Shown in pieces: positions 78 through 32,000 of a DNA stretch of 32,000 bases (within the stretch, counting starts at the first letter, position 1; each line of letters starts with the position of its first letter). The position numbers and the translations under genes were made by a program. Source of the stretch: Candidatus Saccharimonadota bacterium (lineage in GTDB: Bacteria; Patescibacteriota; Gracilibacteria; Absconditabacterales; Absconditicoccaceae); contig OZ246420.1 in the NCBI GenBank assembly GCA_965231145.1, positions 60,001 to 92,000 on the forward strand, read 5' to 3'. A model generated the notes under the pieces. It searched no databases. It was not told where the DNA came from and was given only the letters and a program-made list of their open reading frames with translations.

Positions 78-112
78 TTGCAGCTAGCAACTAGCAATTG
101 GCAACTAGTATG
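78..112. repeat. Word element, family 2 (CTAGCAA / GCAACTAG words), copy D
   Basis: gcagctagcaa at 80..90 equals 13480..13490. tggcaactag at 99..108 equals 22048..22057. Confidence 0.6.
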
Positions 113-559
113 CTACAATTTATCTACTATCTGCTGCCTGCGTTCTGTTGCAATGATAAGTACTTTTGCTATAGTGAGAGTATTTATTGTTTGCAGAAAA
201 CTATGGTGCAAAAAGTGTATGCTGAAGAGGCCGCGGGTATTGATTGTGGGACAAATGCGGAAAAACTGGCCAACGGCCAGTGTACGTTCAATATCTATAA
301 AACCGTGGGAATAAGAGAGCAAAATCAGGAACCAGACGCGAAGGCGTTTATAGAAGATATTTTTTTGTCTGCGACGTTTTTTATTGGTACTGTAGTGGGT
401 GTGGGGCTGATTTATTCAGGTCTTATGTATATCCTTGCAAAAGATGACGGTGCAGCCGGTAAGGCGAAAAACGGTATTAAATGGTCTCTTATCGGACTTG
501 CGCTCGTGATGTTCAGTTACACGATTATTAGGCTCGTGCAGTATATTGCTCAAGGCTAA
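110..559 (+). CDS. Small two-TM pilin-like protein (TrbC/VirB2-type, CPR 'T4SS pilin'-like), paralog 1
   Basis: Track ORF 98..559. The C-terminal half is a TM helix (FFIGTVVGVGLIYSGLMYIL), a short charged loop (AKDDGAAGKAKNG) and a second TM helix (LIGLALVMFSYTII). The ORFs at 3994 and 4483 have the same architecture and loop motif. Start is uncertain: TTG98, ATG110, or ATG203, which lies 28 nt after a TTGCAA-16-TATAGT site. Confidence 0.55.
   Translation: MLQFIYYLLPAFCCNDKYFCYSESIYCLQKTMVQKVYAEEAAGIDCGTNAEKLANGQCTFNIYKTVGIREQNQEPDAKAFIEDIFLSATFFIGTVVGVGLIYSGLMYILAKDDGAAGKAKNGIKWSLIGLALVMFSYTIIRLVQYIAQG
148..175 (+). promoter_or_regulatory. Sigma70-like promoter TTGCAA-16-TATAGT
   Basis: -35 at 148..153 and -10 at 170..175. 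It lies inside the long version of the pilin-1 ORF, 28 nt before ATG 203. Confidence 0.4.
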
Positions 560-2053: not shown

Positions 2054-3793
2054 ATGTCATTAGAACTTGCGAACTTATTGTTTCCTCATGTAACGGAGAC
2101 GATTGAGGATCTGAAAAAGCGCTATCCAGCGCGTCCAGAAGGACAGCATGTGACGCGTTTTGCGCCAAGTCCAACAGGCTTTTTGCATATCGGCGGTGTT
2201 TCAACATCGTTTATTGCAGAGAGATTTGTGCATCAAAATAACGCGAAAGGCGTTATGTTTCTTCGTATAGAAGATACCGATCAGGAAAGAGGAATTGAGT
2301 GAGGAATACAGATGATTATTGATGGCTTGAAAGAGTTTCATATTCAAATAGATGAAGGACCAATTGGGAAAAACCAGGAAGATGTTGGTAACTATGGACC
2401 GTATATCCAGTCGCAGCGTAAAGATTTATACCATGCAGTAGCGAAATATTTTGTCGAGCAAGGACTCGCGTATCCATGTTGGATGAGTCCGGAAGAACTG
2501 GATGCCGTAAGAAAACAGCAACAGGATAATAAGCTTATACCTGGTATCTATGGCTCGTACTCAAAGTGGCGCGATGCTTCATTTGATGAGCAGAAAAAAA
2601 TGATAGAGCAAGGTAGCCCTTTTGTTATTCGCTTGCGTTCGCACGGAGATACAAAGAAAAGAGTAACAGTGAAAGATCTTATTAAGGGAGATGTAGAGAC
2701 GCAAGATAATTTTCTCGACGTGGTGCTTATCAAAGCGAAAGACGGCTTGCCGACCTATCATTTTGCGCATCTAGTTGATGATCATTTTATGGGAACGACG
2801 CATGTCATCCGTAGTGATGAGTGGTTCGCAAGCTTGCCGCTTCATCTGCAATTGTTTTCATTTCTCGGTGTAACGCCACCTCACTTCGCACACGTTTCGC
2901 CGCTTCTCAAGCTCGAAAATGGCAATAAGAGAAAGCTTTCTAAGCGTAAAGATAAAGAAGCAGACATTCGTTGGTTCTTTGCAGAAGGTTATCCGGTCGA
3001 TGCGATTATGGAGTTTCTCATGAACATTATCGATCCTTCTTTTGAAGAGCGACAGAAAAATAATCCGGAAAAAACGTATCTCGATTTCGTGTTTAATATC
3101 TCTCATATGAATGAGTCATGAGCTCTCTTCGATCTCGTGAAACTCGACTTTGTGTCGAAAGAGTGGCTCGCGAAGCTTGATAAGCAAACATTTGCTGATA
3201 TGTGTGTAGAGCGAGCAAAAACATATTACGAGTTACGAGTTACGAGTTACGAGTCAGGGGATAAGGGCAAGGGGATAAGGGATAACCCATGACCTATGAC
3301 CTATAACCTCTATGAGTTAATGGTGAAGCATCCTGAGTACACATTTAACGCGCTCAACATTGAACGTTGTACAGAGCTTGATCCAAAAAGATATCATAAG
3401 TTGTCTGATATCGCTGGACAATTGCCCATGTTCTATGATGAAAATTACGATGCGAACTATAGCGAAAAGCCGGCGTATCCTGAGAATATGACGCCGGACA
3501 TCGTCCGTGCGTTTGTAGAAAAATATTGCGCAGAGATGAATCTTGAGCAGGATAAAACGAGTTGGTTTGAACAATTGAAAGAGATAGGAAAAAATATGCC
3601 TGAAGGGATGAGATTTGCGACAGGTAACGCAGAGTTTAAAGAAGGATGATATGTCGGAAAGACAGGAGATCTTGCTATGTTCTTGCGTATTCAACTCTTG
3701 CTTTCGAAGACAACACCAGATCTGTGTGAGACGATGAAGGTGATGGGGAAAGAGAGGGTTATTAATAGACTTAAAAGAGCAATTACGAATTAA
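2054..3793 (+). CDS. gltX: Glutamyl-tRNA synthetase
   Basis: Track ORFs 2054, 2312 and 3296 plus a C-terminal tail share one frame. They join through TGA 2300, 3119, 3290 and 3647 and end at TAA 3791..3793 (579 aa). HIGH motif [16 protein letters not shown]-like KLSKRK, and GluRS core strings LRIEDTD, HLVDD and IRSDEW are present. Confidence 0.9.
3225..3314 (+). repeat. In-frame block of three tandem-word repeats inside gltX
   Basis: (gttacga)x4 at 3225..3255, gggataagg-type words at 3256..3285, and atgaccta-type words at 3286..3314. It translates as [29 protein letters not shown]. The 14-mer attacgagttacga at 3225..3238 recurs at 3796..3809. Confidence 0.7.
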
Positions 3794-3835: not shown

Positions 3836-3865
3836 AAAAAGCGGACCGGAAACGGCCGCTTTTTA
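3836..3865 (+). terminator. Intrinsic terminator after gltX
   Basis: Stem gcggaccg (3841..3848) / cggccgc (3853..3859), loop gaaa, then TTTTT. Confidence 0.7.
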
Positions 3866-3936
3866 GATATTGTCATTATTGCGAATGCTTTGACGATTAA
3901 GTCAATTGCTGTTGTGCTATAAATAAGCCTATATTT

Positions 3937-3965
3937 TTGCAAAAAATGGCTTTTGGCAGTATAAT
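3937..3965 (+). promoter_or_regulatory. Sigma70-like promoter TTGCAA-17-TATAAT for the pilin 2/3 operon
   Basis: -35 at 3937..3942 and -10 at 3960..3965, 29 nt before ATG 3994. Confidence 0.6.
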
Positions 3966-3993
3966 CTAAGAGTATTATTTCCTTCTTGAAACC

Positions 3994-4470
3994 ATGAAAA
4001 AGATATTATTCCCTATTCTCGGACTTTTGCTCGGACTTTCTACCAGCGCTCATGCGATCGTATTTTTTGATAACACTTCGTCGGTTTACACCAGAAACGA
4101 GCAGGATGCTGTAACAACAAACGATATCTGACCTGGTAATCCGCTCAGAGGAGGTATGGACAATCCCGGAAGAAATATAAGGGGACTCTACTACAATGGG
4201 CCTATTAACACCGTCTATCAGGCGCAAAATCAGACGCTTGGCTACGTACATAATATGCTCAACTGGGTGCTTACTTTGCTTGGCTTAATTGCTTTAGCGT
4301 ATCTTCTCTACTATGGATTTATGATCATTACCGCAGCAGGAGATGACGCAGCGGTGAAGAAGGGACGAGGCGGCATGAGAACATCTGCGATTGCGATTAT
4401 TGGTATTGCAGTGAGCTGGCTTATCGTGAGTTTCATTATCTATCTGATTGATACATTTATTCTTCTCTAA
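3994..4470 (+). CDS. Small two-TM pilin-like protein (TrbC/VirB2-type), paralog 2, with signal peptide
   Basis: ATG 3994 opens a signal peptide MKKILFPILGLLLGLSTSAHA. It is in frame with track ORF 4156..4470 through TGA 4129..4131. The C-terminus is TM (LIALAYLLYYGFMIITA), loop AGDDAAVKKGRGG, TM (IAIIGIAVSWLIV). A TTGCAA-17-TATAAT promoter lies 29 nt upstream. Confidence 0.6.
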
Positions 4471-4482
4471 TACAAAAGTACC

Positions 4483-5016
4483 ATGAAAAACACACTCAAA
4501 ACAAAAGGTATTATCGGATGGATCATCGTCGCGCTTTTGTCGGTGAAGAATATGATCCTCCGCGCGAGCGCCCTCGACATCAGCGTAGGATGGGGAGGCA
4601 TCAACATAGATCTTGGATGAGGAGGCGGATGAGGTGGATATACAAGCGAACCTTTTTACAATGAAATGAGAGGTGCTGGCGCGCCAACATCAGACGCCGG
4701 TATTCTTCTCTCTCAGACAAATCAGCGCGCAAGTCTTCTTGAAAGACTACTTGATGTGTTTGGCATAAATTACGCTGGTGATGGCAAGGCACTTAGTTAT
4801 ATACAAATTATTATTAACTATGTCTTATCGTTCACTGCGTTTATCGCGCTCATCGTGATCATCTATGGTTTTTACATGATGTTCTTCCGTGAGCAGGATA
4901 AGGGCTTTGGACAAGCAAAGAAAACAGTGACAGGAGCGGCTATCGCACTTTTTGTCATCGGTATCTCATGGCTGTTTGTAAACTTCGCGTTCTACGTGTT
5001 TAATCAAGGGTTCTAA
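4483..5016 (+). CDS. Small two-TM pilin-like protein (TrbC/VirB2-type), paralog 3, with signal peptide and Gly8 tract
   Basis: ATG 4483 (MKNTLKTKGIIGWIIVALLSV...ASA) is in frame with track ORF 4666..5016 through TGA 4618 and TGA 4630. The C-terminus is TM (FIALIVIIYGFYMMFF), loop REQDKGFGQAKK, TM (AIALFVIGISWLFV). It starts 13 nt after paralog 2. Confidence 0.6.
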
Positions 5017-5023
5017 AAATAGC

Positions 5024-5090
5024 AGTTAGATTATAGATGTTAGATGTTGGCAAAATAAGGTTGCTATAATCTAAAATCTAACATCTAAGT
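5024..5090. repeat. Word-palindrome element, family 3 (TTAGATTATAGAT / CTAACATCTAA), copy G
   Basis: The left arm ttagattatagatgttagatgtt pairs with the right arm ctataatctaaaatctaacatctaa. The 13-mer 5026..5038 equals 29005..29017. The 11-mer 5078..5088 equals 29037..29047. Confidence 0.75.
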
Positions 5091-5127
5091 GCTGCATATG
5101 TGCTTTATACTTTAGCTTTACAGAACT

Positions 5128-5847
5128 ATGGCTTTTAAGCTGTTCAACTTCGAGAAGGGAAAGATACAGAAGGGAGTGCATGACCAGGTGTTTAACACTG
5201 AGACGATGCTTCCTATTTCTGAGATCAGAGGTGATACGATCGTCCTAAAAGATGGATGACTCAGAGGTGTCATCAGGGTATCAGGTCTCAATCTTGATCT
5301 GAAAAATGCAGATGAGCAGGATGTGGTTATCCAGCAATATAAAAGATTTCTCAATGGTCTGGATTTTCCTATTCAAATACTTGTTCGTAGTACCTATCTC
5401 GACCTGACGCATTATCTTGGATATATGAATGACAATGTGAATATCATTGAAAATGATGTGCTGAAACAGCACGGTCAGCAGTATGTAGATTTTCTTGATA
5501 AAATAAATCTGGCGCAGGGTTTGATCTATGTGAAGGAGTTTTACATAGTTGTTCCGTATTATGCAGATGCGGTATCGGAAGATGAAGCGAATATGAAAAA
5601 GCCCTGGTGGAAAAAGTTTCTTGATGTACTTGAAAGTAAAGATAGCGCAGAAAAGATCGTGGAAAGATATCGTGGATTTGTGAAAAATAGAAAGTTTCTC
5701 GATACAAGATGTTCGCTTATCAAGGAGGGGTTGAGGGGAATGAATATAGATACTGATAGACTCGAACTTACTGATATCGTAGCGCTGCTGTTTAAGTTTT
5801 ATAATCCAACTATGCATAACGATCAGGCGGAACTAACGAACAAATAA
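5128..5847 (+). CDS. Stand-alone VirB4/TrbE-family N-terminal domain protein (no ATPase domain)
   Basis: ATG 5128 is in frame with track ORF 5323..5847 through TGA 5257..5259 (239 aa). ISEIRGDTIVLKDGGLRGVIRVSGLNLDLKNADEQDVVIQQYKRFLNGLDFPIQILVRS...FYIVVPYY follows the N-terminal pattern I recall from Gram-positive/CPR VirB4-type conjugation ATPases (Tn916 Orf16/TcpF type). No Walker A motif is present. The ORF ends at TAA 5845 and no ATPase sequence follows in any frame. Confidence 0.5.
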
Positions 5848-5853
5848 ACTTAA

Positions 5854-5918
5854 AGATCAGAGATCAGAGAGCAAAAAATTAATAAGGTACGTTATTTCAT
5901 TCTGCTCTTTGCTCTTTC
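5854..5918. repeat. Word-palindrome element, family 5 (GATCAGAG / AGAGCAAA words), copy K
   Basis: Tandem agatcag x2, with gagagcaaa (5868..5876) pairing with tttgctctt (5908..5916). The 20-mer 5892..5911 is the exact reverse complement of 12641..12660. Confidence 0.8.
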
Positions 5919-6010
5919 ACCTTTTAGTTTGCCAAGAAAACATTATACATGATAGGTATAATGTTTTTTTTTATTGTGCGCGAGAACTAATGCTGTGAGT
6001 TGCAAGCTTA

Positions 6011-6688
6011 ATGATAGGTCTAACCACGCAATATACGTACTTGTCACCTATTGTTGGTGATGGTTCGTCGTATGTATATGCGCAGCAGCTCGACATCACG
6101 AGTGATGATAGTATCACGAGATATGTTGCGCCAAATGCGCCTCTCAATTTTCTTCGTTACAAGCCAAATGATCTTGTTTCATTGGTCGAATCTCCATTTA
6201 TCCGGGTGCAGTGAGGAGTGTGATTTCTCAGGCGCGAAGCGTTTGATCAACTTTCTGATATGGCTTATCACTTCCATGCGATCTTTAACAAACGTCTTGT
6301 TGTCGTAAGTTCGTATAGAAGCTTTTGACTGCAAAATACATTATTCGCAGGCTATATGGAGACACATGGTCTTGCTGCTGCAGGGTTTTCTGCGCTTCCG
6401 GGACATAGCGAACATCAGCTCTGACTTGCTGCAGATTTGTTCACCGCTAACAGCGCTGATGTGAAAGGATACAATGGTTACTATGACTGGCTTCAAAGAA
6501 ATGCACATAGACGATGATGGATCCAATCCTATCAGAAATGAAGAGAGGTTGATGGATATGTAGTAGAGCCATGGCACTGGCGTTATGTGGGAAGAGAGCT
6601 TGCTACCTTGCTTTATCTGAAACAGATGACTTTTGCAGAGTGGGTAACGAAATATAAGAAGATAGTGATTATTACGAAGAAGTTATAG
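6011..6688 (+). CDS. Peptidase M15 D-alanyl-D-alanine carboxypeptidase (VanY/LdcB-like)
   Basis: One frame reads from ATG 6011 (alternative ATG 5990) through six TGA codons (6212, 6221, 6326, 6422, 6515, 6539) to TAG 6686..6688. Motifs SSYRSF-G-LQ, GHSEHQL-G-LAADL and EPWHWRYVG are the zinc-binding and catalytic signatures of VanY-type M15 peptidases. Confidence 0.8.
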
Positions 6689-6722
6689 AGACTCATATGA
6701 AAAGATGTCAGCATGATCAAAG

Positions 6723-6750
6723 AAACATTGCCAAGTGGCAATGTTTTTGT
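6723..6750 (+). terminator. Intrinsic terminator after the M15 peptidase gene
   Basis: Stem aaacattgcc / ggcaatgttt with loop aagt, followed by a T-run. Confidence 0.7.
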
Positions 6751-6807
6751 TATGTAAAATACTGACGTGAACGGCGCGACGACGGACGACGCATTAACGA
6801 TGAGTCC

Positions 6808-9520: not shown

Positions 9521-11032
9521 TTAGTTTCTTATGAGATAGTCTAAGTTTCCTGCGGTGAACACTGTTACTAGTTCGCTTTCTTTGGCGTTATTCATAATTT
9601 CTTTTACTTCGTTAATGTCTTTGAGGTATTTTGCTCATGTTTGGATAGCTATCTCAAGGCTTACGTCTTCAGCGTTTGTTGCTTGTGTGGTGATCTTATC
9701 TTCAAACTCCTTGAGCAGAACTGCGATGTCTTCTCTGGCTGCGTAGATTGGATAAATGTAGAGCGTATCAAACTGTTTCAACACATGCACCCATTCATCC
9801 CAAAATTCTAATACGCGACGCATCTGATGTGGTTGGACAATCGCCACTATTTTTTTGTCTGCATATTTGTCTCTCATTGCGTGATAGACTGCATTGATTT
9901 CTGTTGGATGATGACCGTAGTCAGTATAGATCAGAGCGCCGTTATCGTTTGTTCTGAGATATTCCATCCTTCTTCGAAGACCGGTGAAACTATTGAGTGC
10001 GGCTATAATTGATTCGTTTGCGCCCAGTTCAAAGTCGGTATAGCCTAAAAGATGTGCAGTAAGTGCATAGACGAGCGATGCGTTTTTCTGATTGTGTTTT
10101 CCAAAAATATGCTGCAGTGAAAGTGGATATGTTTCTATGAGTTCTAGTTTCTTATTGTTCCCTAAATCATAGGTCATGGGTTGCAATTCAGCTCATGGAT
10201 GATAGACGTTTGGAGCCGATGCAGAGTCGTCAACAATGAGCAGCTTCCCATCTGTGTGGATCAATGGCTCAGCAAAGCGATCTATGCCTTTTTCTCCAGC
10301 GATAGCTCGGATGTTCTTTTTTGCTTTGTTTCCGAACTGGTGAAAAGCTTCGAAGTAGATGGCATCGTTTGCGTAGATATCACTGTGGTCCAGTTCGGCA
10401 TTTAATACAAGCGCGTAGTCGACATCGAGATAGAGGAAGTGACGATTGAACTCGTCGGCCTCGATCACGAAGCGATATTTGTTACGGAGGGACTCATCCC
10501 ATTCACTTTGTTTTCCATCGAGGATATAGTCAAAAATCTTTTTGATATCATCTGTTGCTTTGCGATTGAGCCAGTAGTTTTTATTGTCTAACTGTGGAAC
10601 AAGCGCACCAAGAATTCCTAGTCCAAGCTTGCTATCAAGTTGGCTGAGAGTGTAGGTAGCAAGCGCTGTTGTCGTAGACTTTCAGTGAGTTCCTGCAATA
10701 GCAATAGTCTCAAAGTATTTGCTGATTTCTCCCAGAAACTGAAAATAACTCATCGGATAGCGAGCTTTTCTGGTCGATTCTTCGGCCATTTTTTTTGCAT
10801 GAGCGAGCTCCGGGCTTTTGAGTAGTGCATCAGAGTAAATCACAAAATCTGTGCTCTTGATCTCATATTTTCCTTCACCAATAATCACATCATATCATAT
10901 CTTGGCGAGTTCATCAGTAATCTGACTCTGCGCGCCATCAATACAAATAACATTGTCTATTCCAAGATCCTTAAAAAGAAATCCCAGTGAAGAGAGTCCT
11001 GTTCATCCAGCTCATAATAGTACTATGTTCAT
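9521..11032 (-). CDS. murC: UDP-N-acetylmuramate--L-alanine ligase
   Basis: Track ORFs 9635, 10193 and 10682 plus the N-terminus share one frame and join through six TGA codons (11012, 11003, 10895, 10682, 10193, 9635); 503 aa. The N-terminus is MNIVLLGAGGTGLSSL, the Mur-ligase P-loop is IAGTH-G-KSTTTA, and the ligase core strings are GKHNQKNA, FTGLRRRME, YGHHPTEI and VQPHQMRR. Confidence 0.85.
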
Positions 11033-15047: not shown

Positions 15048-15404
15048 ATGAGTTCATCTATGTTAAAAATTACGACTGGATTTTTATACAAAATACACAG
15101 GATCATTATTTACCTTGTATTTGTTTGCCTCTTTGTGTGGCTTTTAGGGTGTAACTACGGTGCGCATTCTGAAATCCAAGTATTGGTTGCTGCTCCTATT
15201 GTGGCGGCAACGCTATGCTCATTTCTGTCGATTTCCGCCACCAAGTGGAAGGCAGATTTGCTTACTGCCATAGCGATTCTAAGTGTTATTATTGCTGCGG
15301 GTTTTTTGATTATGTTTCACGATTTTTTGTGGGCTGGTTCTATGAGCCTGCTAAGTGTAGTCAGTTACATTATGACTTATCTTGGAGTTTTTTCTTCTAG
15401 GTAA
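15048..15404 (+). CDS. Small 4-TM membrane protein, cassette 1 of 4
   Basis: 118-aa ORF with four hydrophobic segments. It has its own promoter (14996..15024) and terminator (15407..15435). Confidence 0.6.
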   Translation: MSSSMLKITTGFLYKIHRIIIYLVFVCLFVWLLGCNYGAHSEIQVLVAAPIVAATLCSFLSISATKWKADLLTAIAILSVIIAAGFLIMFHDFLWAGSMSLLSVVSYIMTYLGVFSSR

Positions 15405-15406
15405 AT

Positions 15407-15435
15407 AGCGAGAGGAGTATCCCTCGCTTTTTTTG
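15407..15435 (+). terminator. Intrinsic terminator, cassette 1
   Basis: Stem agcgagagg / ccctcgct with loop agtat, then T7. Confidence 0.7.
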
Positions 15436-15463
15436 TTGACAAAACATAGCGTAATCCTACAAT
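15436..15463 (+). promoter_or_regulatory. Sigma70-like promoter TTGACA-16-TACAAT (cassette 2)
   Basis: -35 at 15436..15441 and -10 at 15458..15463, 22 nt before ATG 15485. It begins directly after the T-run of the preceding terminator. Confidence 0.65.
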
Positions 15464-15484
15464 CGAGACTTAAACCAAACGCTT

Positions 15485-15874
15485 ATGACAAAACGTTACA
15501 AAAGTTATCTGAAGCATGCTGCCGTTTGGGTAGCGCTCGTACTATTGGCTGGTTGGATATTTGCTCTTCCTTTGCAGCTTGTCGGCAGCCTTGTTGTTCA
15601 GGTAGCCATTATCATGGCTATATGGAAAATAGATGAACTTGTTGTCACTACTATGCACAATAAGTACAAACAAGAAATTGTGGCTTTTTTCCTTTTAGGA
15701 GTAGGAGTCACTATTTTATTGGGAACTATCGGACTACTCATCTATTTCCGTCCTAAAGTATGGGGAGGTATGATGACCTTAACGGTGCTTACTCCACTTG
15801 TCATTCTTGTTGTAGAATATATTATTGCTATCAAAACGAGTGCTTGGGATGATGGACAATTTGGCCTTGAATAA
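15485..15874 (+). CDS. Small 4-TM membrane protein, cassette 2 of 4
   Basis: 129-aa ORF with four hydrophobic segments. It has its own promoter (15436..15463) and terminator (15886..15911). Confidence 0.6.
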   Translation: MTKRYKSYLKHAAVWVALVLLAGWIFALPLQLVGSLVVQVAIIMAIWKIDELVVTTMHNKYKQEIVAFFLLGVGVTILLGTIGLLIYFRPKVWGGMMTLTVLTPLVILVVEYIIAIKTSAWDDGQFGLE

Positions 15875-15885
15875 GACATGATAAT

Positions 15886-15911
15886 GCGCGCTGTACCAGC
15901 GCGTTTTTTTT
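15886..15911 (+). terminator. Intrinsic terminator, cassette 2
   Basis: Stem cgcgctg / cagcgcg with loop tac, then T8. Confidence 0.75.
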
Positions 15912-15913
15912 AA

Positions 15914-15941
15914 TTGAAAATTATGTGGTCAGCAGTATAAT
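15914..15941 (+). promoter_or_regulatory. Sigma70-like promoter TTGAAA-16-TATAAT (cassette 3)
   Basis: -35 at 15914..15919 and -10 at 15936..15941, 21 nt before ATG 15962. Confidence 0.65.
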
Positions 15942-15961
15942 GATGGTCTAAACAAGTGTGT

Positions 15962-16351
15962 ATGAAACAAAAACTATATTACTTCGGTTATGTCATCGGA
16001 GCTCAGTGTTTATGTGCAATGCCAGTGTATTGGCTGACTAACCCAGGGACGATGGTCGGCTTTTCGATCGTGATGGCGTATATTGCAGCGTGTTTACTGG
16101 GCGATATGTATGTCCTTGAGGGCTTCATGAGAAATAAACTGCTGCGGACTTTATTGTTGGTAGCGGCCGTAATAGTCTTTTTGCCGGGTTGTATACTCAT
16201 GCTGCTAGGAACTTTTATTGTTGCAGTAAGCGAAGGGCTCTATTTTGCTTTATTGGTATTGCTGTGTAGTGTGTTTTATTTTGTCTGGGCGGCAATAATG
16301 CTTCCCAAAAAGATTGGGAACACTATGGAACAAAGTGGAGTGTTTGCGTAA
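15962..16351 (+). CDS. Small 4-TM membrane protein, cassette 3 of 4
   Basis: ATG 15962 (MKQKLYYFGYVIGAQ...). It is a clear paralog of the 16483 ORF: same MKQKL start, shared (F/L)(M/V)RNK(L/I) loop string, same TM spacing. It has its own promoter (15914..15941) and terminator (16405..16431). Confidence 0.65.
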   Translation: MKQKLYYFGYVIGAQCLCAMPVYWLTNPGTMVGFSIVMAYIAACLLGDMYVLEGFMRNKLLRTLLLVAAVIVFLPGCILMLLGTFIVAVSEGLYFALLVLLCSVFYFVWAAIMLPKKIGNTMEQSGVFA

Positions 16352-16404
16352 AATATCTATAACATCAGGACTTTACTATTGGCCGTATGAATTTATGCGA
16401 TGTT

Positions 16405-16431
16405 GAACGGGAGATTTCTTCCGTTTTTTTT
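16405..16431 (+). terminator. Intrinsic terminator, cassette 3
   Basis: Stem aacggga / ttccgtt (with one G-U pair), then T8. Confidence 0.6.
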
Positions 16432-16433
16432 GA

Positions 16434-16461
16434 TTGACAACTACATGTCCAGCAATATAAT
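16434..16461 (+). promoter_or_regulatory. Sigma70-like promoter TTGACA-16-TATAAT (cassette 4)
   Basis: -35 at 16434..16439 and -10 at 16456..16461, 22 nt before ATG 16483. Confidence 0.65.
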
Positions 16462-16482
16462 CGAATCTTAAACAAATAATAC

Positions 16483-16887
16483 ATGAAACAAAAACTATTT
16501 TTCTTCATTGCTGTTATCGTTGCACAGAGTATATGGGGCTTACCATTTTTTCTTACTAAATCACGTGAAGTTGAATGGCTTGCTTCAATGACGTGCTATG
16601 TCCTAGTATGTTTAGGTGGGCATCTCTATGTTATCATAGGACTTGTGCGAAATAAGATAGTAGAGACAGTATTGTCGGTGATATTAGTCGTTTCCTTTCT
16701 AGTATCTGGCCTTATACTACTGGCTATGATGCTTTTGATGGCAAGCAGGTTAGAGTTTTTTATCTTTCCGATTGTATTGCTTTGTGCTCTGTATTTGATT
16801 AATGCAGGACGGACAATACCAAAAGAGCTCGATGCATTTATGGTAAAAAGGCAATGGCTCAAAAACAGCTTATGGTTTAATAGCTGA
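16483..16887 (+). CDS. Small 4-TM membrane protein, cassette 4 of 4
   Basis: 134-aa ORF (MKQKLFFFIAVIVAQ...), paralog of the 15962 ORF. It has its own promoter (16434..16461) and terminator (16904..16931). Confidence 0.65.
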   Translation: MKQKLFFFIAVIVAQSIWGLPFFLTKSREVEWLASMTCYVLVCLGGHLYVIIGLVRNKIVETVLSVILVVSFLVSGLILLAMMLLMASRLEFFIFPIVLLCALYLINAGRTIPKELDAFMVKRQWLKNSLWFNS

Positions 16888-16903
16888 AGTTATGTACTTA
16901 AAT

Positions 16904-16931
16904 ACGGCGATGTTCTATCGCCGTTTTTTTT
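16904..16931 (+). terminator. Intrinsic terminator, cassette 4
   Basis: Stem acggcgat / atcgccgt with loop gttct, then T8. Confidence 0.75.
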
Positions 16932-16933
16932 CA

Positions 16934-16967
16934 TAAAAAAATGGTTGCCGGTAAGCCGGAAACCATT
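16934..16967 (-). terminator. Intrinsic terminator after the 112-aa ORF
   Basis: On the minus strand: aatggtttccgg, loop ctta, ccggcaaccatt, then T7. Confidence 0.7.
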
Positions 16968-16985
16968 GCCCTGTTTGCTATCTTA

Positions 16986-17324
16986 TTAATTTTGCGCTCC
17001 AATAGTACTTACGAGCAGGGTGTCGTCTTCTTGTACTTGTACTATGGTTGTTGGGGCTTTAAACTGTAAAACCGTAAGGAATACTCCAGGTTTTTTAAGT
17101 GTTTGCCATATTTCATTTGTTAACGCATCGGGGTGAATGTGAGTGGTTGCACTCCGAAGTTCTTGTACTTGAGGCGGTACAGAAATCACAGATAATTCAT
17201 CTCCCAGTGTGCCATTAGATGCAAAGTGTGCAACATGCCCGAAAGGCAGTACAGAGGGATCTATTTGTAGTGTGAAAATGATCCCATGATTTTTAAACAA
17301 CTCGTGTGCTTTTGTGTAGTTCAT
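16986..17324 (-). CDS. Hypothetical protein (112 aa)
   Basis: Uninterrupted ORF with a true TAA stop, followed on its own strand by a strong hairpin and T-run (16934..16967). I recognise no motif. Confidence 0.5.
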   Translation of the reverse strand: MNYTKAHELFKNHGIIFTLQIDPSVLPFGHVAHFASNGTLGDELSVISVPPQVQELRSATTHIHPDALTNEIWQTLKKPGVFLTVLQFKAPTTIVQVQEDDTLLVSTIGAQN

Positions 17325-26155: not shown

Positions 26156-26725
26156 CTAATGTGTATAAGCTAATACCCCAAGTTCTCTTGCTCTGATGAT
26201 AGCACGTCTTACCTTCTTTTGATGCTTTACTCTGTTTCCCATGAACGCTCTTGGTTTGATATTTCCAAATCTTGTTGTATAGTGTTTCAATAGATTTACA
26301 GCTTTCCAATTGATGTTAGAGATCGTAGCATCATCTTCGAAAAATCCTTTTTTCACTGTAATATTTTTTCCTTTTGCGTCTTTTTCCTGTTCCCATGTTT
26401 TGTTGATCTCAGCATATGAGATAAACTGTTCGCTAGGAGCCATAAGGAAAAACGCAAACCTAATCAAACCTTTCATGATACCAAAAGCCGCCTTAAGAGA
26501 CTGTACCTTGTCGCCAGAAAGTTCAAGGTGATATGAAATGAAGTAAGCCTGCTTAAGCTTAAGCTTTGTAATATCGTGAGTAAGAGTAGTCATACCCATG
26601 TCGTCAGTAGCAATGATCTTTCCTCCGCTGTTCGCGAGGAGCTTCTGAATGTCATTTACGAGTTTTTCATGATCATCCTTGCTGAGCTGAGGCTGTAAAA
26701 GGATAACGAGTTCATAATTTTTCAT
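26156..26725 (-). CDS. rpsF/rpsR: Fused 30S ribosomal proteins S6 (N-terminal) and S18 (C-terminal) in one ORF
   Basis: The single open frame 26156..26764 has no stop of any kind. The likely start is ATG 26725 (MKNYELVILLQPQLS..., bS6-like through ...LIRFAFFLM). The C-terminus VKKGFFEDDATISNINWKAVNLLKHYTTRFGNIKPRAFMGNRVKHQKKVRRAIIRARELGVLAY is bS18-like. Confidence 0.8.
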   Translation of the reverse strand: MKNYELVILLQPQLSKDDHEKLVNDIQKLLANSGGKIIATDDMGMTTLTHDITKLKLKQAYFISYHLELSGDKVQSLKAAFGIMKGLIRFAFFLMAPSEQFISYAEINKTWEQEKDAKGKNITVKKGFFEDDATISNINWKAVNLLKHYTTRFGNIKPRAFMGNRVKHQKKVRRAIIRARELGVLAYTH

Positions 26726-26796
26726 AATACTTACATAAGAAGAATATAAAGGGTGATAGGTCAAATGCCGTAGGCACCATACAACCTTGTTAACAA

Positions 26797-28932: not shown

Positions 28933-29002
28933 AATAAGTTCAGCAAGGAGCAGAACTCCATTTACGCCGTTCTTACGAACATATTCTATACTTAATCAGT
29001 GC

Positions 29003-29062
29003 AATTAGATTATAGATATGAGATTGTAGCACCTTGCTAACATCTAATATCCAACATCTAAC
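29003..29062. repeat. Word-palindrome element, family 3, copy H
   Basis: ttagattatagatatgagattgtagc ... gctaacatctaatatccaacatctaa, in the same orientation as copy G. Confidence 0.75.
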
Positions 29063-29074
29063 CGCTCGTTAAAA

Positions 29075-30059: not shown

Positions 30060-30250
30060 CGTGTGCCCGTCATAATATAAAATAAAAAAATGTCCCTGAG
30101 GAGAGGAACAAGGCATACAAAAAACATTGCAGTGCAATCTTATCTGTAGCCAATTACCTCGGTAGGAGATTGCTCATTAAATCAGCTAGAACGCTGATAC
30201 CTACTGTCTTTGTATAATTGGTAACGATTCGTATTGCTCGAATCACAGAT

Positions 30251-30348: not shown

Positions 30349-32000
30349 TTAGCCGGGCTTTTTGGTTTGTAAAAATGGGGTGGTTGTGAGTATGTCGCTC
30401 GTTTTTAACTGCTTTGCGACGAACTCGTTTACTATGGTTGGAGAGATCGACGTTCATTTTTGTACATCGCTATTTACCGCATATGCCATAAATTTACGCA
30501 TTTTTGAGCCAATATCGTTGGTCGCTCAGAGTAGGTTGTTCTTGTTGGCATCAAATTCCTCTTGGGAAATACCAGTTCCTGCAAGTACGAACTCTTTGAA
30601 TTCTTTGCTTTGATTCACGATTGTGCTAAATGAGTCTCTAAAATTCTTACTTTGGGCTGAGATGTTTTTCTGCGAGACTATTTCTCTTATGGTCTGCAGT
30701 ATCTGATTTACTCAGCCAGTCGAAGACTGTAGTAGTTTACTTTGTTCCGTGCGAGAGATGTCATTGTTTGATTCTTCCGATATGTTAAAGAGGTTTTTTG
30801 TGCTCTTCCCAATATCGGTCTTGTAAAAAGATGTTGTTAATCTATTTGTTTGTTCGTCTATTTTGCTATTTGCATATGCTCCGCTGCTGAGAGAACTGAC
30901 AGCATCATTTTTCGTTTTAGTGAGTGATGCAAGCGATGTCAACCCTGTGCCCATAGGTATAATGTTTGAGTTTGCAACGAGTTTCTCAGAAAAAGCGAAG
31001 ACGCTCGTCGCTGCGCTTTTCGTAAATGTCGAGAATGATGCTCCTATCTTGAGGAGCGACCATATGAGTACGACACTGAACCCTGTCACGATAAGATATC
31101 CAATCATACCACCGACAAAGTTACCCATCTCCTTAAACAGGTTTCCATCTATTGTTATCTCTGTTCCTGTTGCCTTATCTTTCAGTGTGGATGTCTTATC
31201 TTTTGAGCTTATTTCAATTTGTTCGATCTGTTTGTTGAATTCGCTTCCTGACTTCTGATCTCCTGGATCTCCGCCGAGTACATAGTAGATACCGATACTT
31301 AATATCATGGCGAGAGAGACAGCGCCTATCATGGCGACTGGCTGAAAAATAAGCGCTAACACATCGCTGAATTTTCAAAATCATATGCTCGTCTTTGCAT
31401 CGCCAAGTTTTTTAATAAATCCAGGTGTCATTTTATCATCAAACGATCGAGCAATCGCCGCAAGCGGCGCGAATGCTATCCGCATTCGTAATCTGAACAT
31501 CCTGATGAAGTTAATAACGATGAGTGCGAACATGGGTACGGTGAACGCGATCAATAGAAACAATTTGATGAAGAGGCCGATGGTGAAGTTTTTCCAGTTT
31601 GATATATCCTGGTTCATGATATCGTAGTCCTGAAACCTGAAAATAGCAGCTCCCATAAAGAGCAGTGGTCCGCTCATGTCATTGAATTTCCCAAACATTT
31701 CTTCGATAGTCTGGCTTCATTCGTGGGTGCTAAAGAGTGGTGCATTTTCTTTGAAACTGACATCTATTCTGACAGGGACAGTGACAGCGAGCTGCATCAT
31801 TTTACTTTTGCTCATGTCTTCCGTCGAGCCTTGGATGAACTGCGTAGGGAAAGCGCCGACTGCTGCAGTAGCGACATTTGAGAGGTCGATGAGTGCTCCC
31901 ATGAGAAACCAACTCATCTGGATCAGCACGCCTGCGAGAAGGTATCTTGGAAGTATCTTTTGTATTTCAAAGGCATCTTTGGTGAAAAATGATTTGAGAA
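30349..32000 (-). CDS. Large polytopic membrane protein, possibly VirB6/TrbL-like (5' end outside window)
   Basis: Track ORFs 31717, 31381 and 30712 share one frame. They join through TGA 31717, 31381, 31375, 30712, 30526 and 30454 to TAA 30349..30351, and the frame is open to the window edge. At least five long hydrophobic helices are followed by a Ser/Thr/Asn-rich soluble tail. The VirB6/TrbL assignment rests on architecture only. Confidence 0.4.

Follow-up and report, generated by a model that had tools for sequence, protein, structure and literature searches.

A conserved pilin-pilin-trsD operon of the Gracilibacteria and its likely place in a scattered type IV secretion system

The DNA considered here, a window of 32,000 nucleotides on contig OZ246420.1 (positions 60,001 to 92,000, forward strand) of a Candidatus Saccharimonadota assembly placed in the Absconditabacterales (Gracilibacteria; GCA_965231145.1), carries three co-directional genes named pilB (3994..4470, +), pilC (4483..5016, +) and trsD (5128..5847, +). 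The first two are predicted to encode VirB2-like pilins of a type IV secretion system (T4SS) and the third a stand-alone counterpart of the N-terminal domain of VirB4. Together, pilB-pilC-trsD constitute a conserved chromosomal operon, tightly linked across the Gracilibacteria/Absconditabacteria class, and it is very likely that this operon belongs to a conjugation-derived, MPF-FATA-type T4SS serving the host-dependent life of these Patescibacteria. The type of system has been described already; what is added here is the fixed pilin-pilin-trsD operon of the Gracilibacteria class.

In a survey of 3,035 Patescibacteria genomes, the VirB4 present in most of them fell in a monophyletic clade within MPF-FATA (Quinonero-Coronel et al. 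2025, PMC12102498). These conjugation-derived systems come with TrsD and with VirB2-like pilins in arrays of 2-11 genes, relaxases being rare or mostly absent, and their genes are scattered in the Gracilibacteria (PMC12102498). TrsD, the most abundant T4SS component of Patescibacteria, is as a rule encoded close to virB4, "with the notable exception of … Gracilibacteria", in which VirB3 is rarely near TrsD and VirB6 is recorded as "absent", "suggesting extreme sequence divergence" (PMC12102498). Transposon sequencing showed that a T4SS cluster and its pilin array are indispensable to Southlakia epibionticum for its epibiotic growth (Wang et al. 2023, PMC10633639), as repeated in a 2025 review (PMC12857230). 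Secretion-system subunits have been detected in Gracilibacteria proteomes (PMC11452946), and one report describes tubular structures at a patescibacterium-host interface that may be T4SS pili (bioRxiv 10.64898/2026.06.21.733656).

The pilin-pilin-trsD operon

Linkage was assessed in 80 genome loci fetched around TrsD homologs, in which open reading frames (ORFs) were called under translation table 25 and clustered; the denominators differ by count, with 79 loci for gene positions, 72 for same-strand pilin counts and gaps, and 77 for membrane families. At least 65 of 79 loci have a pilC-type gene at position -1 to trsD, and at least 51 of 79 a pilB-type gene at position -2. An unfiltered count of same-strand pilin ORFs within 1.6 kb upstream of trsD gave two or more in 62 of 72 loci and one or more in 65 of 72. 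An earlier note on this DNA had proposed comparing gene neighbourhoods among relatives, and the pilins are indeed found together with a T4SS gene, trsD, in these 62 loci. The genes are closely spaced, with median gaps of 7 nt between pilB and pilC (12 nt in the window) and 23 nt between pilC and trsD, and the flanks vary widely (gltX, recA, uvrA, two-component genes and others), with 45 of 72 loci having the gene 3' of trsD on the other strand. The closest relatives are two uncultured 'Patescibacteria group' metagenome-assembled genomes, designated L004 and L005, with TrsD identities of 82-83%, followed at 50-62% identity by SR1/Absconditabacterales and by genomes labelled 'Peribacteria'.

Profile searches and architecture place PilB, PilC and a third paralog, PilA (203..559, +; ~118 aa), in the VirB2-like T4SS pilin family, in agreement with the two tandem pilins and the upstream paralog that had been proposed from the sequence. 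PilB (158 aa, one TGA=Gly codon) scores 34.1 bits and PilA 28.6 bits against Pfam T4SS_pilin (PF18895), each above the gathering threshold of 26.6 bits, and the NCBIfam model for the Mbov_0395 pilin-like conjugal transfer protein of mycoplasma ICEs is matched by PilB and PilC, at E=6.6e-10 (PilB) and 4.6e-4. PilC (177 aa) was assigned through its paralogy to PilB, with 29% identity over 79 residues of the core (E=3.5e-11). PF18895 is matched by 18 of 18 family cores, pilC-type orthologs among them (E<=0.01, best 2e-11), and a few of these cores also touch the TrbC/VirB2 and CagC models. By hydropathy and sequence inspection, both tandem products bear the signal, transmembrane helix, short basic loop and second helix ascribed to them earlier: a signal-like N-terminus (..SAHA/IV in PilB, ..RASA/LD in PilC, the slash marking the predicted cleavage site) is followed by two C-terminal transmembrane helices joined by a short, net-basic Gly/Asp/Lys loop, which in PilB reads AAGDDAAVKKGRGG. 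The two TGA=Gly codons of pilC fall in a Gly8 linker. PilA likewise has two C-terminal transmembrane helices and a loop, along with a conserved Cys pair in its N-terminal part, and its ortholog in L004 (117 aa, 71% identical) is also placed before tsaB. The start of pilA is most likely ATG 203 and not 110, as first proposed; a promoter-like TTGCAA-16-TATAGT (TG-extended; 148..175, +), read from the sequence, lies within the 110..559 ORF, 27 nt ahead of ATG 203.

These two-helix proteins could instead be membrane-resident parts, handling lipid or cargo or anchoring TrsD in the manner of VirB3, that form no extracellular filament. Gram-positive MPF-FATA T4SSs are indeed mostly without pili (PMC12102498), and PrgI/VirB3 precedes TrsD in other classes, so a membrane anchor would be expected at that place; moreover, no solved pilin is detectable by sequence, a search of the PDB with the pilin profile having returned nothing meaningful, and no pilus of this kind has been purified. 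Nevertheless, such a role is quite improbable. The pilin family and PrgI align with an hhalign probability of just 0.1%, and the models that the family matches are T4SS_pilin, TrbC and CagC, not PrgI. The architecture is that of VirB2, a cleavable signal and then a C-terminal helix hairpin, and the pilins diverge faster (median identity to the window ~36%) than TrsD (56%), as surface-exposed subunits would. The tubes reported at the patescibacterium-host interface as possible T4SS pili (bioRxiv 10.64898/2026.06.21.733656) also speak for a filament. Separately, PilC had been considered as a VirB3/PrgI analogue, as suggested by the PrgI-TrsD gene order elsewhere, and this candidacy was ruled out by the same hhalign comparison.

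The third gene of the operon encodes a protein of 239 aa, predicted to be a soluble alpha/beta protein, which had been described as a VirB4 N-terminal-domain ORF. NCBIfam VirB4_plasma matches it at E=1.9e-14 over profile positions 87-233 of 894, with a score of 52 bits against a full-length cutoff of 590, and the NCBIfam TrsD/TraD model (NF041427) matches ~50 residues at E=1.5e-8 (34.7 bits against a curated cutoff of 200). The 'TraC-like' label PF26593 is precomputed on 120 of 120 listed homologs, including those 82-83% identical and a 99%-identical fragment. Against 1.84 billion representatives, the TrsD profile retrieved 2,418 clusters; among the best 150, almost every protein stands alone and measures 200-450 aa. 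An exception, P0238, is a full VirB4 of 797 aa with a P-loop_TraG/AAA_10 domain at residues 448-751, and the TrsD family profile aligns with its residues 3-213 (hhalign probability 99.6%, E=2.5e-24). At the locus L087, a 663-aa VirB4 encoded 3' of a TrsD gene matches P0238 from residue 226 onward only (48% identical across 568 residues) and is without a TrsD-like part (probability 0.8%). Because the profile covers residues 3-213 of P0238 and the L087 VirB4 begins at residue 226, TrsD is the N-terminal domain of VirB4 encoded as a separate, full-length polypeptide rather than a broken VirB4. Nor is it a VirB4 in itself, since it lacks the C-terminal P-loop NTPase domain; no AAA_10 or P-loop_TraG domain with Walker A/B motifs was found in the 239-aa ORF or elsewhere in the window. 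The earlier identification therefore stands, specified as a full-length TrsD. VirB4 was also observed to occur in Patescibacteria both fused (P0238; L086 544-2937, 797 aa) and split (L087 8001-11137, with a TrsD of 378 aa and a VirB4 of 663 aa), PrgI preceding both P0238 and the L087 pair.

Structural comparison points in the same direction. The AlphaFold model of TrsD (pLDDT 66.8, pTM 0.55) returned R388 TrwK/VirB4 chains as all of its top 14 Foldseek matches in the PDB, matches that are weak but unanimous (best E=0.025, probability 0.96, TM 0.37 normalised to query). A sequence search of the PDB with the 239-aa ORF gave nothing meaningful.

That only the N-terminal third of VirB4 is matched, at 52 bits against a cutoff of 590, with no ATPase, relaxase or coupling protein nearby, might be taken to mean that the ORF is a truncated virB4 that an integrated conjugative element left behind, the pilin-like genes being residual cargo without any current function. 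The evidence effectively refutes this explanation. Homologs of TrsD number ~900 and are almost all 230-240 aa long, sharing a length of ~235 aa, and an alignment of 25 of them across the class has 44 invariant columns and a mean column identity of 66%. TrsD is conserved at the level of housekeeping proteins, its median identity to the window (56%) equalling that of GltX (57%) and falling between those of MurC (40%) and RecA (70%). The operon is kept in varied chromosomal contexts, and the stand-alone form dominates the family, which has been published as TrsD (PMC12102498). A truncated virB4 pseudogene is ruled out by the uniform length and conservation of the homologs, as is the context of an integrative and conjugative element (ICE) or island by the window itself, in which no tRNA, integrase or compositional island was found and the composition is unremarkable.

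All of these genes depend on the genetic code, and the table-25 reading that had been assumed at the outset proved correct, the ORFs existing only with TGA as a sense codon. Table 11 leaves the region in fragmented ORFs, and TGA as sense gives long intact genes throughout the window, including gltX, murB, recA, murC, secF, rpoB, rpoC and others. The code of the window is table 25, with TGA=Gly, because TGA codons occupy Gly-rich columns of the TrsD alignment: for 265 TGA codons in 75 aligned TrsD genes, the columns are 52% Gly in the remaining sequences (background 4.7% Gly, 0.4% Trp). The single TGA of the window trsD stands at a conserved Gly, in a column with 54 Gly. A second peculiarity was seen in about 40 of the 75 related TrsD genes, in which CGA (36 cases) and CGG (4 cases), but never AGA, AGG, CGT or CGC, occur at conserved Trp columns (for example L006, L010, L017, L041, L044, L059 and L067, with TrsD at ~10001-10700). 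The pattern fits a reassignment of CGA/CGG to Trp atop code 25 in an Absconditabacterales clade, where such a reassignment has reportedly been described (Shulgina & Eddy 2021). The window uses TGG for Trp and its closest relatives have CGA at Arg/Lys columns, so that a possible recoding of Trp is without effect on the window.

Transcription signals and hairpins

An intrinsic-terminator-like hairpin with a T-run at the end of gltX (3836..3866, +; -17.6 kcal/mol, z -4.8), also called on the minus strand, marks the upstream boundary of the operon. On its 3' side, 28 nt ahead of the pilB ATG, lies a sigma-70-type promoter, TTGCAA-17-TATAAT (3937..3965, +), assigned to pilB-pilC(-trsD) and the best match (10/12) between positions 3600 and 7000. 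Promoter-like sites are in no excess over this interval, with 8 found compared to 9.5 +/- 3.4 in shuffled sequences; the promoter is credible because of its placement and its positional conservation in L005, where a homologous TTGAAA-N16-TATACT occupies the equivalent place. As proposed, transcription of pilB and pilC from this one promoter is plausible. It is less certain for trsD, which may be attenuated or have its own start because the 111-nt spacer before it carries a strong hairpin and a -10-like box.

This spacer is unusually long against the class median of 23 nt, and its counterpart in L004 measures 29 nt and is without the hairpin. The hairpin itself (5020..5094, +; -30.4 kcal/mol, z -6.9) is long, has no U-tract and is one copy of a palindromic repeat, with the box TGCTATAAT (5062-5070) in its 3' arm. 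A second copy at ~28990-29068 (-), between rplL and rpsB, is 79% identical and folds with comparable energy (-29.4 kcal/mol, z -5.4). Both copies comprise TAGATGT heptamers with a -10-like TGCTAyAAT box in the 3' arm, and they share their orientation between co-directional genes (pilC to trsD, rplL to rpsB). A 22-base motif from the 3' arm has no match in 85 related loci, and the repeat is apparently lineage-specific. The palindromic element may serve as an operator or attenuator, or may be a selfish repeat; the copy before trsD may act as attenuator, mRNA-stabiliser or internal promoter. Another hairpin of similar build, made of AGATCAG heptamers, was noticed 3' of trsD at 5856-5922 (+). The probable 3' end of the operon is a terminator-like AT-rich hairpin with a T9 run between trsD and the next gene, vanY (5934..5978, +; -15.2 kcal/mol, z -3.2), and an analogous hairpin with a T-run separates trsD from vanY in L004.

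Neighbouring genes and the scattered apparatus

The gene vanY (5990..6688, +; 232 aa, 7 TGA=Gly codons) encodes a genuine M15 peptidoglycan peptidase of the D-Ala-D-Ala carboxypeptidase type (Pfam VanY, 91.5 bits), with intact zinc and catalytic motifs, SEHQLGLAAD (SxHxxGxAxD) and EPWH (ExxH). Its true start is ATG 5990 and not 5909, as judged by alignment with the orthologs of L004 and L005, and it ends at a terminator of its own (6716-6753; -20.4 kcal/mol, z -4.3). The identification of a VanY-type peptidase in the earlier note was thus sound; the same cannot be said of the wall-opening, VirB1-like role that the note considered for it, by which the operon would become a four-gene module with VanY/M15 as the dedicated wall-opening enzyme of the pilus or T4SS. 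In the window, as in L004 and L005, vanY is on the same strand directly 3' of trsD, and the AT-rich hairpin after trsD might permit read-through. Cell-wall hydrolases are also encoded 3' of virB4 in other Patescibacteria, as in L087, and S. epibionticum has essential peptidase and lysozyme genes located downstream of virB4 (PMC12102498). Even so, this module is unlikely. Adjacency of vanY and trsD is confined to the closest relatives, L004 and L005, 2 distinct genomes of ~75; a terminator-like hairpin and T-run lie between the two genes in the window and in L004; and the gene after trsD is, as noted above, often on the opposite strand. Moreover, vanY has murB and murC as neighbours, an ordinary cell-wall context. 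M15 DD-carboxypeptidases trim stem peptides, whereas VirB1-type enzymes cut glycan or cross-links. The hydrolase beside virB4 in L087 is of the 3D+CHAP type and not M15, and vanY falls outside the VirB1-like enzymes, which are recognised by a lytic transglycosylase, CHAP or 3D domain encoded with T4SS genes. It is probably not a member of the T4SS but a separate cell-wall housekeeping gene, and the neighbouring M15 peptidase should not carry annotation as a T4SS component.

Other parts of the machine are not found beside the operon. No ORF with a VirB4 ATPase domain occurs within 10 kb of trsD in the fetched loci, which total 1.34 Mb, and this matches the published pattern of the Gracilibacteria (PMC12102498). 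No coupling protein, relaxase or ATPase was detectable in the window, nor did any of its ORFs match a PrgI hidden Markov model (HMM). The expectation of a scattered apparatus, with neither coupling protein, relaxase nor complete ATPase here, was accordingly confirmed. In four of five distant contexts sampled, PrgI/VirB3 is encoded directly 5' of the TraC-like domain, namely at three TrsD genes that stand alone and at the fused P0238. A PrgI/VirB3 HMM built from other classes also matches ORFs at E ~1e-7 in four oral SR1 genomes (L042 3901-4368, L043 1021-1488, L047 1916-2383 and L053 3851-4318, all +), each located 6-9 kb upstream of the pilin-trsD cassette, so that some Absconditabacteria appear to keep PrgI loosely linked to it.

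A polytopic membrane protein is encoded at the far end of the window (30349..32000, -) in a frame that is open to the window edge, its N-terminus being cut off. Homologs in this family are 600-680 aa long and without a Pfam domain, and searches of Pfam, NCBIfam and PDB sequences with the family gave no match. L084 has two paralogs in tandem (887 and 657 aa) upstream of rplJ, syntenic with the window, and the family member is the second of them. With a TrbL-like protein, P0293, the family profile aligns over 170 columns (hhalign probability 95%, E=2.8e-8), a link that is transitive only: the overlapping region of P0293 has a sub-threshold TrbL/VirB6 match (E=0.0015), and its precomputed Pfam label, PF19590, was not reproduced by the local scan. 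The model of the ORF has a predicted polytopic helical architecture (pLDDT 58), and from this low-confidence model the best Foldseek match in the PDB is TrwI/VirB6 (E=0.39, probability 0.69), with three other R388 stalk chains also among the matches. In 12 of 77 loci the membrane pair and the pilin-trsD cassette are no more than 10 kb apart, and in L044 and L074 the pair is arranged head-to-head with the cassette. The VirB6/TrbL-like label given previously thus belongs to a real polytopic membrane ORF, but the link through P0293 and the fold match at E=0.39 lend that identity weak support; a highly divergent VirB6/TrbL-like channel subunit is a plausible candidate, not an established one.

A further unannotated family of membrane proteins, C2 (~383 aa), was recognised by clustering; it has a multi-transmembrane N-terminal part and a C-terminal part that is SLH-like by eye. 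It was found in 32 of 77 loci (L044 7624-8823, -; L074 7726-8802, -; and 30 other loci), divergent at ~2.3 kb upstream of trsD and always on the opposite strand. C2 accompanies the membrane pair and cassette in L044 and L074, is present in every locus with the candidate VirB6 pair nearby, and has no homolog in the window. It is possibly a further T4SS or envelope component.

Elsewhere in the window, a single 202-aa ORF at 26156-26764 (-) joins ribosomal proteins S6 and S18 and looks like an rpsF-rpsR gene fusion; the 207-aa ortholog of L084 has PF01250 together with PF01084. An Rfam ribosomal protein L10 leader at 30075-30230 (-), scoring 45.2 bits against a gathering score of 44, is located upstream of rplJ, between rplJ and the membrane-protein gene, and the real start of rplJ therefore lies downstream of the 30137 ORF start. 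Four consecutive ORFs at 15048-16989 (+) encode small polytopic membrane proteins of 118-168 aa without Pfam matches, of which at least the last two are obvious paralogs (MKQKL… N-termini).

Proposed mechanism and comparison with known systems

In the mechanism proposed here, the pilins would be exported through Sec, cleaved after AHA or ASA and held in the membrane as hairpins with the basic loop toward the cytoplasm. In the R388 structure, the N-terminal domain of VirB4 is membrane-proximal and works with VirB3. TrsD may similarly act as a membrane-proximal adaptor that connects inner-membrane components and the pool of pilins with a VirB4 ATPase whose gene lies elsewhere. This ATPase would extract the pilins and polymerise them into a pilus or tube contacting the host cell, on a VirB6-like platform that the far-end membrane protein pair may provide. 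The absence of a linked relaxase or coupling protein would make proteins or host-derived macromolecules the likely cargo, not conjugative DNA, and the machine would serve host interaction and not conjugation. The hairpin between pilC and trsD would probably keep pilin transcripts in excess of trsD transcripts or provide a second start site.

Several points weigh against assigning the operon to a working T4SS of this kind. VirB4, VirB3/PrgI and VirD4 were not seen for this organism within the 32-kb window, and that the machine is complete is taken from the published survey at class level. By itself PilC reaches 16.8 bits, short of the PF18895 cutoff of 26.6, and PilA is without a classical signal peptide. 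The TrsD model is of only moderate confidence (pLDDT 67) and its Foldseek E-values are weak (0.025 or worse), and the parts assigned to TrsD as adaptor and to the hairpin are ones that we infer. To our knowledge, no pilus of this type has been shown biochemically in any patescibacterium, and we know of no function for TrsD, even in the pGO1 prototype.

Were the operon to belong to such a T4SS, as we consider very likely, it would be part of a machine that is among the few with a demonstrated essential role in the epibiotic life of Patescibacteria. The genetic tie of trsD to two pilin genes, and not to virB4 or prgI, is a testable hint that TrsD acts on pilins. A bolder idea, possible but less likely than not, is that the code-25 Gracilibacteria/Absconditabacteria rewired TrsD from the PrgI-TrsD-VirB4 arrangement into a fixed pilin-pilin-TrsD operon, in which it acts directly on the pilins as a docking or dislocation adaptor, and that the tandem membrane pair is the 'missing' VirB6. 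If TrsD does act on pilins, the most abundant patescibacterial T4SS component would gain its first function; if the membrane pair is also VirB6, the scattered T4SS of the Gracilibacteria could be reconstructed. A candidate now exists, at least, for the VirB6 that published surveys missed in this class: VirB6 has been published as undetectable in the Gracilibacteria, and the candidate is proposed here on weak evidence.

Among known systems, the VirB/Trw machines of Agrobacterium and R388 provide the structural likeness. The only consistent fold matches of the TrsD model are to TrwK/VirB4, the far-end membrane protein has its best fold match in TrwI/VirB6, and the pilins have the architecture of VirB2 from these systems. 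Unlike the genes described here, however, the Agrobacterium and R388 systems build a diderm machine with an outer-membrane core of VirB7/9/10, which is absent here, and their VirB4 is a single polypeptide; identity to the window proteins in the fold alignments is only 7-17%.

The T4SS of Mycoplasma ICEs (Mbov_0395 and the VirB4 Mbov_0397) supplies the best NCBIfam matches of both the window pilins and the TrsD ORF. It belongs to a monoderm and has a pilin-like gene just upstream of virB4. In that mobile element the N-domain is contained within a full-length VirB4 of 894 profile positions, whereas in the window it is a separate gene of a fixed chromosomal operon.

The Trs system of the staphylococcal plasmids pGO1 and pSK41 (TrsC-TrsD-TrsE), the MPF-FATA prototype, possesses a small, stand-alone TrsD homologous to the N-terminal portion of VirB4 (TrsE), like the window ORF, although the latter matches the staphylococcal TrsD/TraD model over ~50 residues only, well below its cutoff. 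Staphylococcal Trs is plasmid-borne and conjugative, with a relaxase and coupling protein and without VirB2-like pilins, in all of which it differs from the window.

The closest likeness is to the patescibacterial systems themselves. The cluster SEML1_0006-0019 of S. epibionticum ML1 has, like the window, tandem VirB2-like pilins (PF18895) and a TrsD homologue, and the patescibacterial T4SSs share with it the absence of a linked relaxase or coupling protein and a chromosomal housekeeping context. Saccharimonadia and most other classes maintain a single PrgI-TrsD-VirB4-hydrolase cluster, as seen in L087. In the lineage of the window, by comparison, trsD is fixed to two pilin genes, a pilin stands in the usual place of PrgI, and the other parts of the machine are encoded elsewhere.

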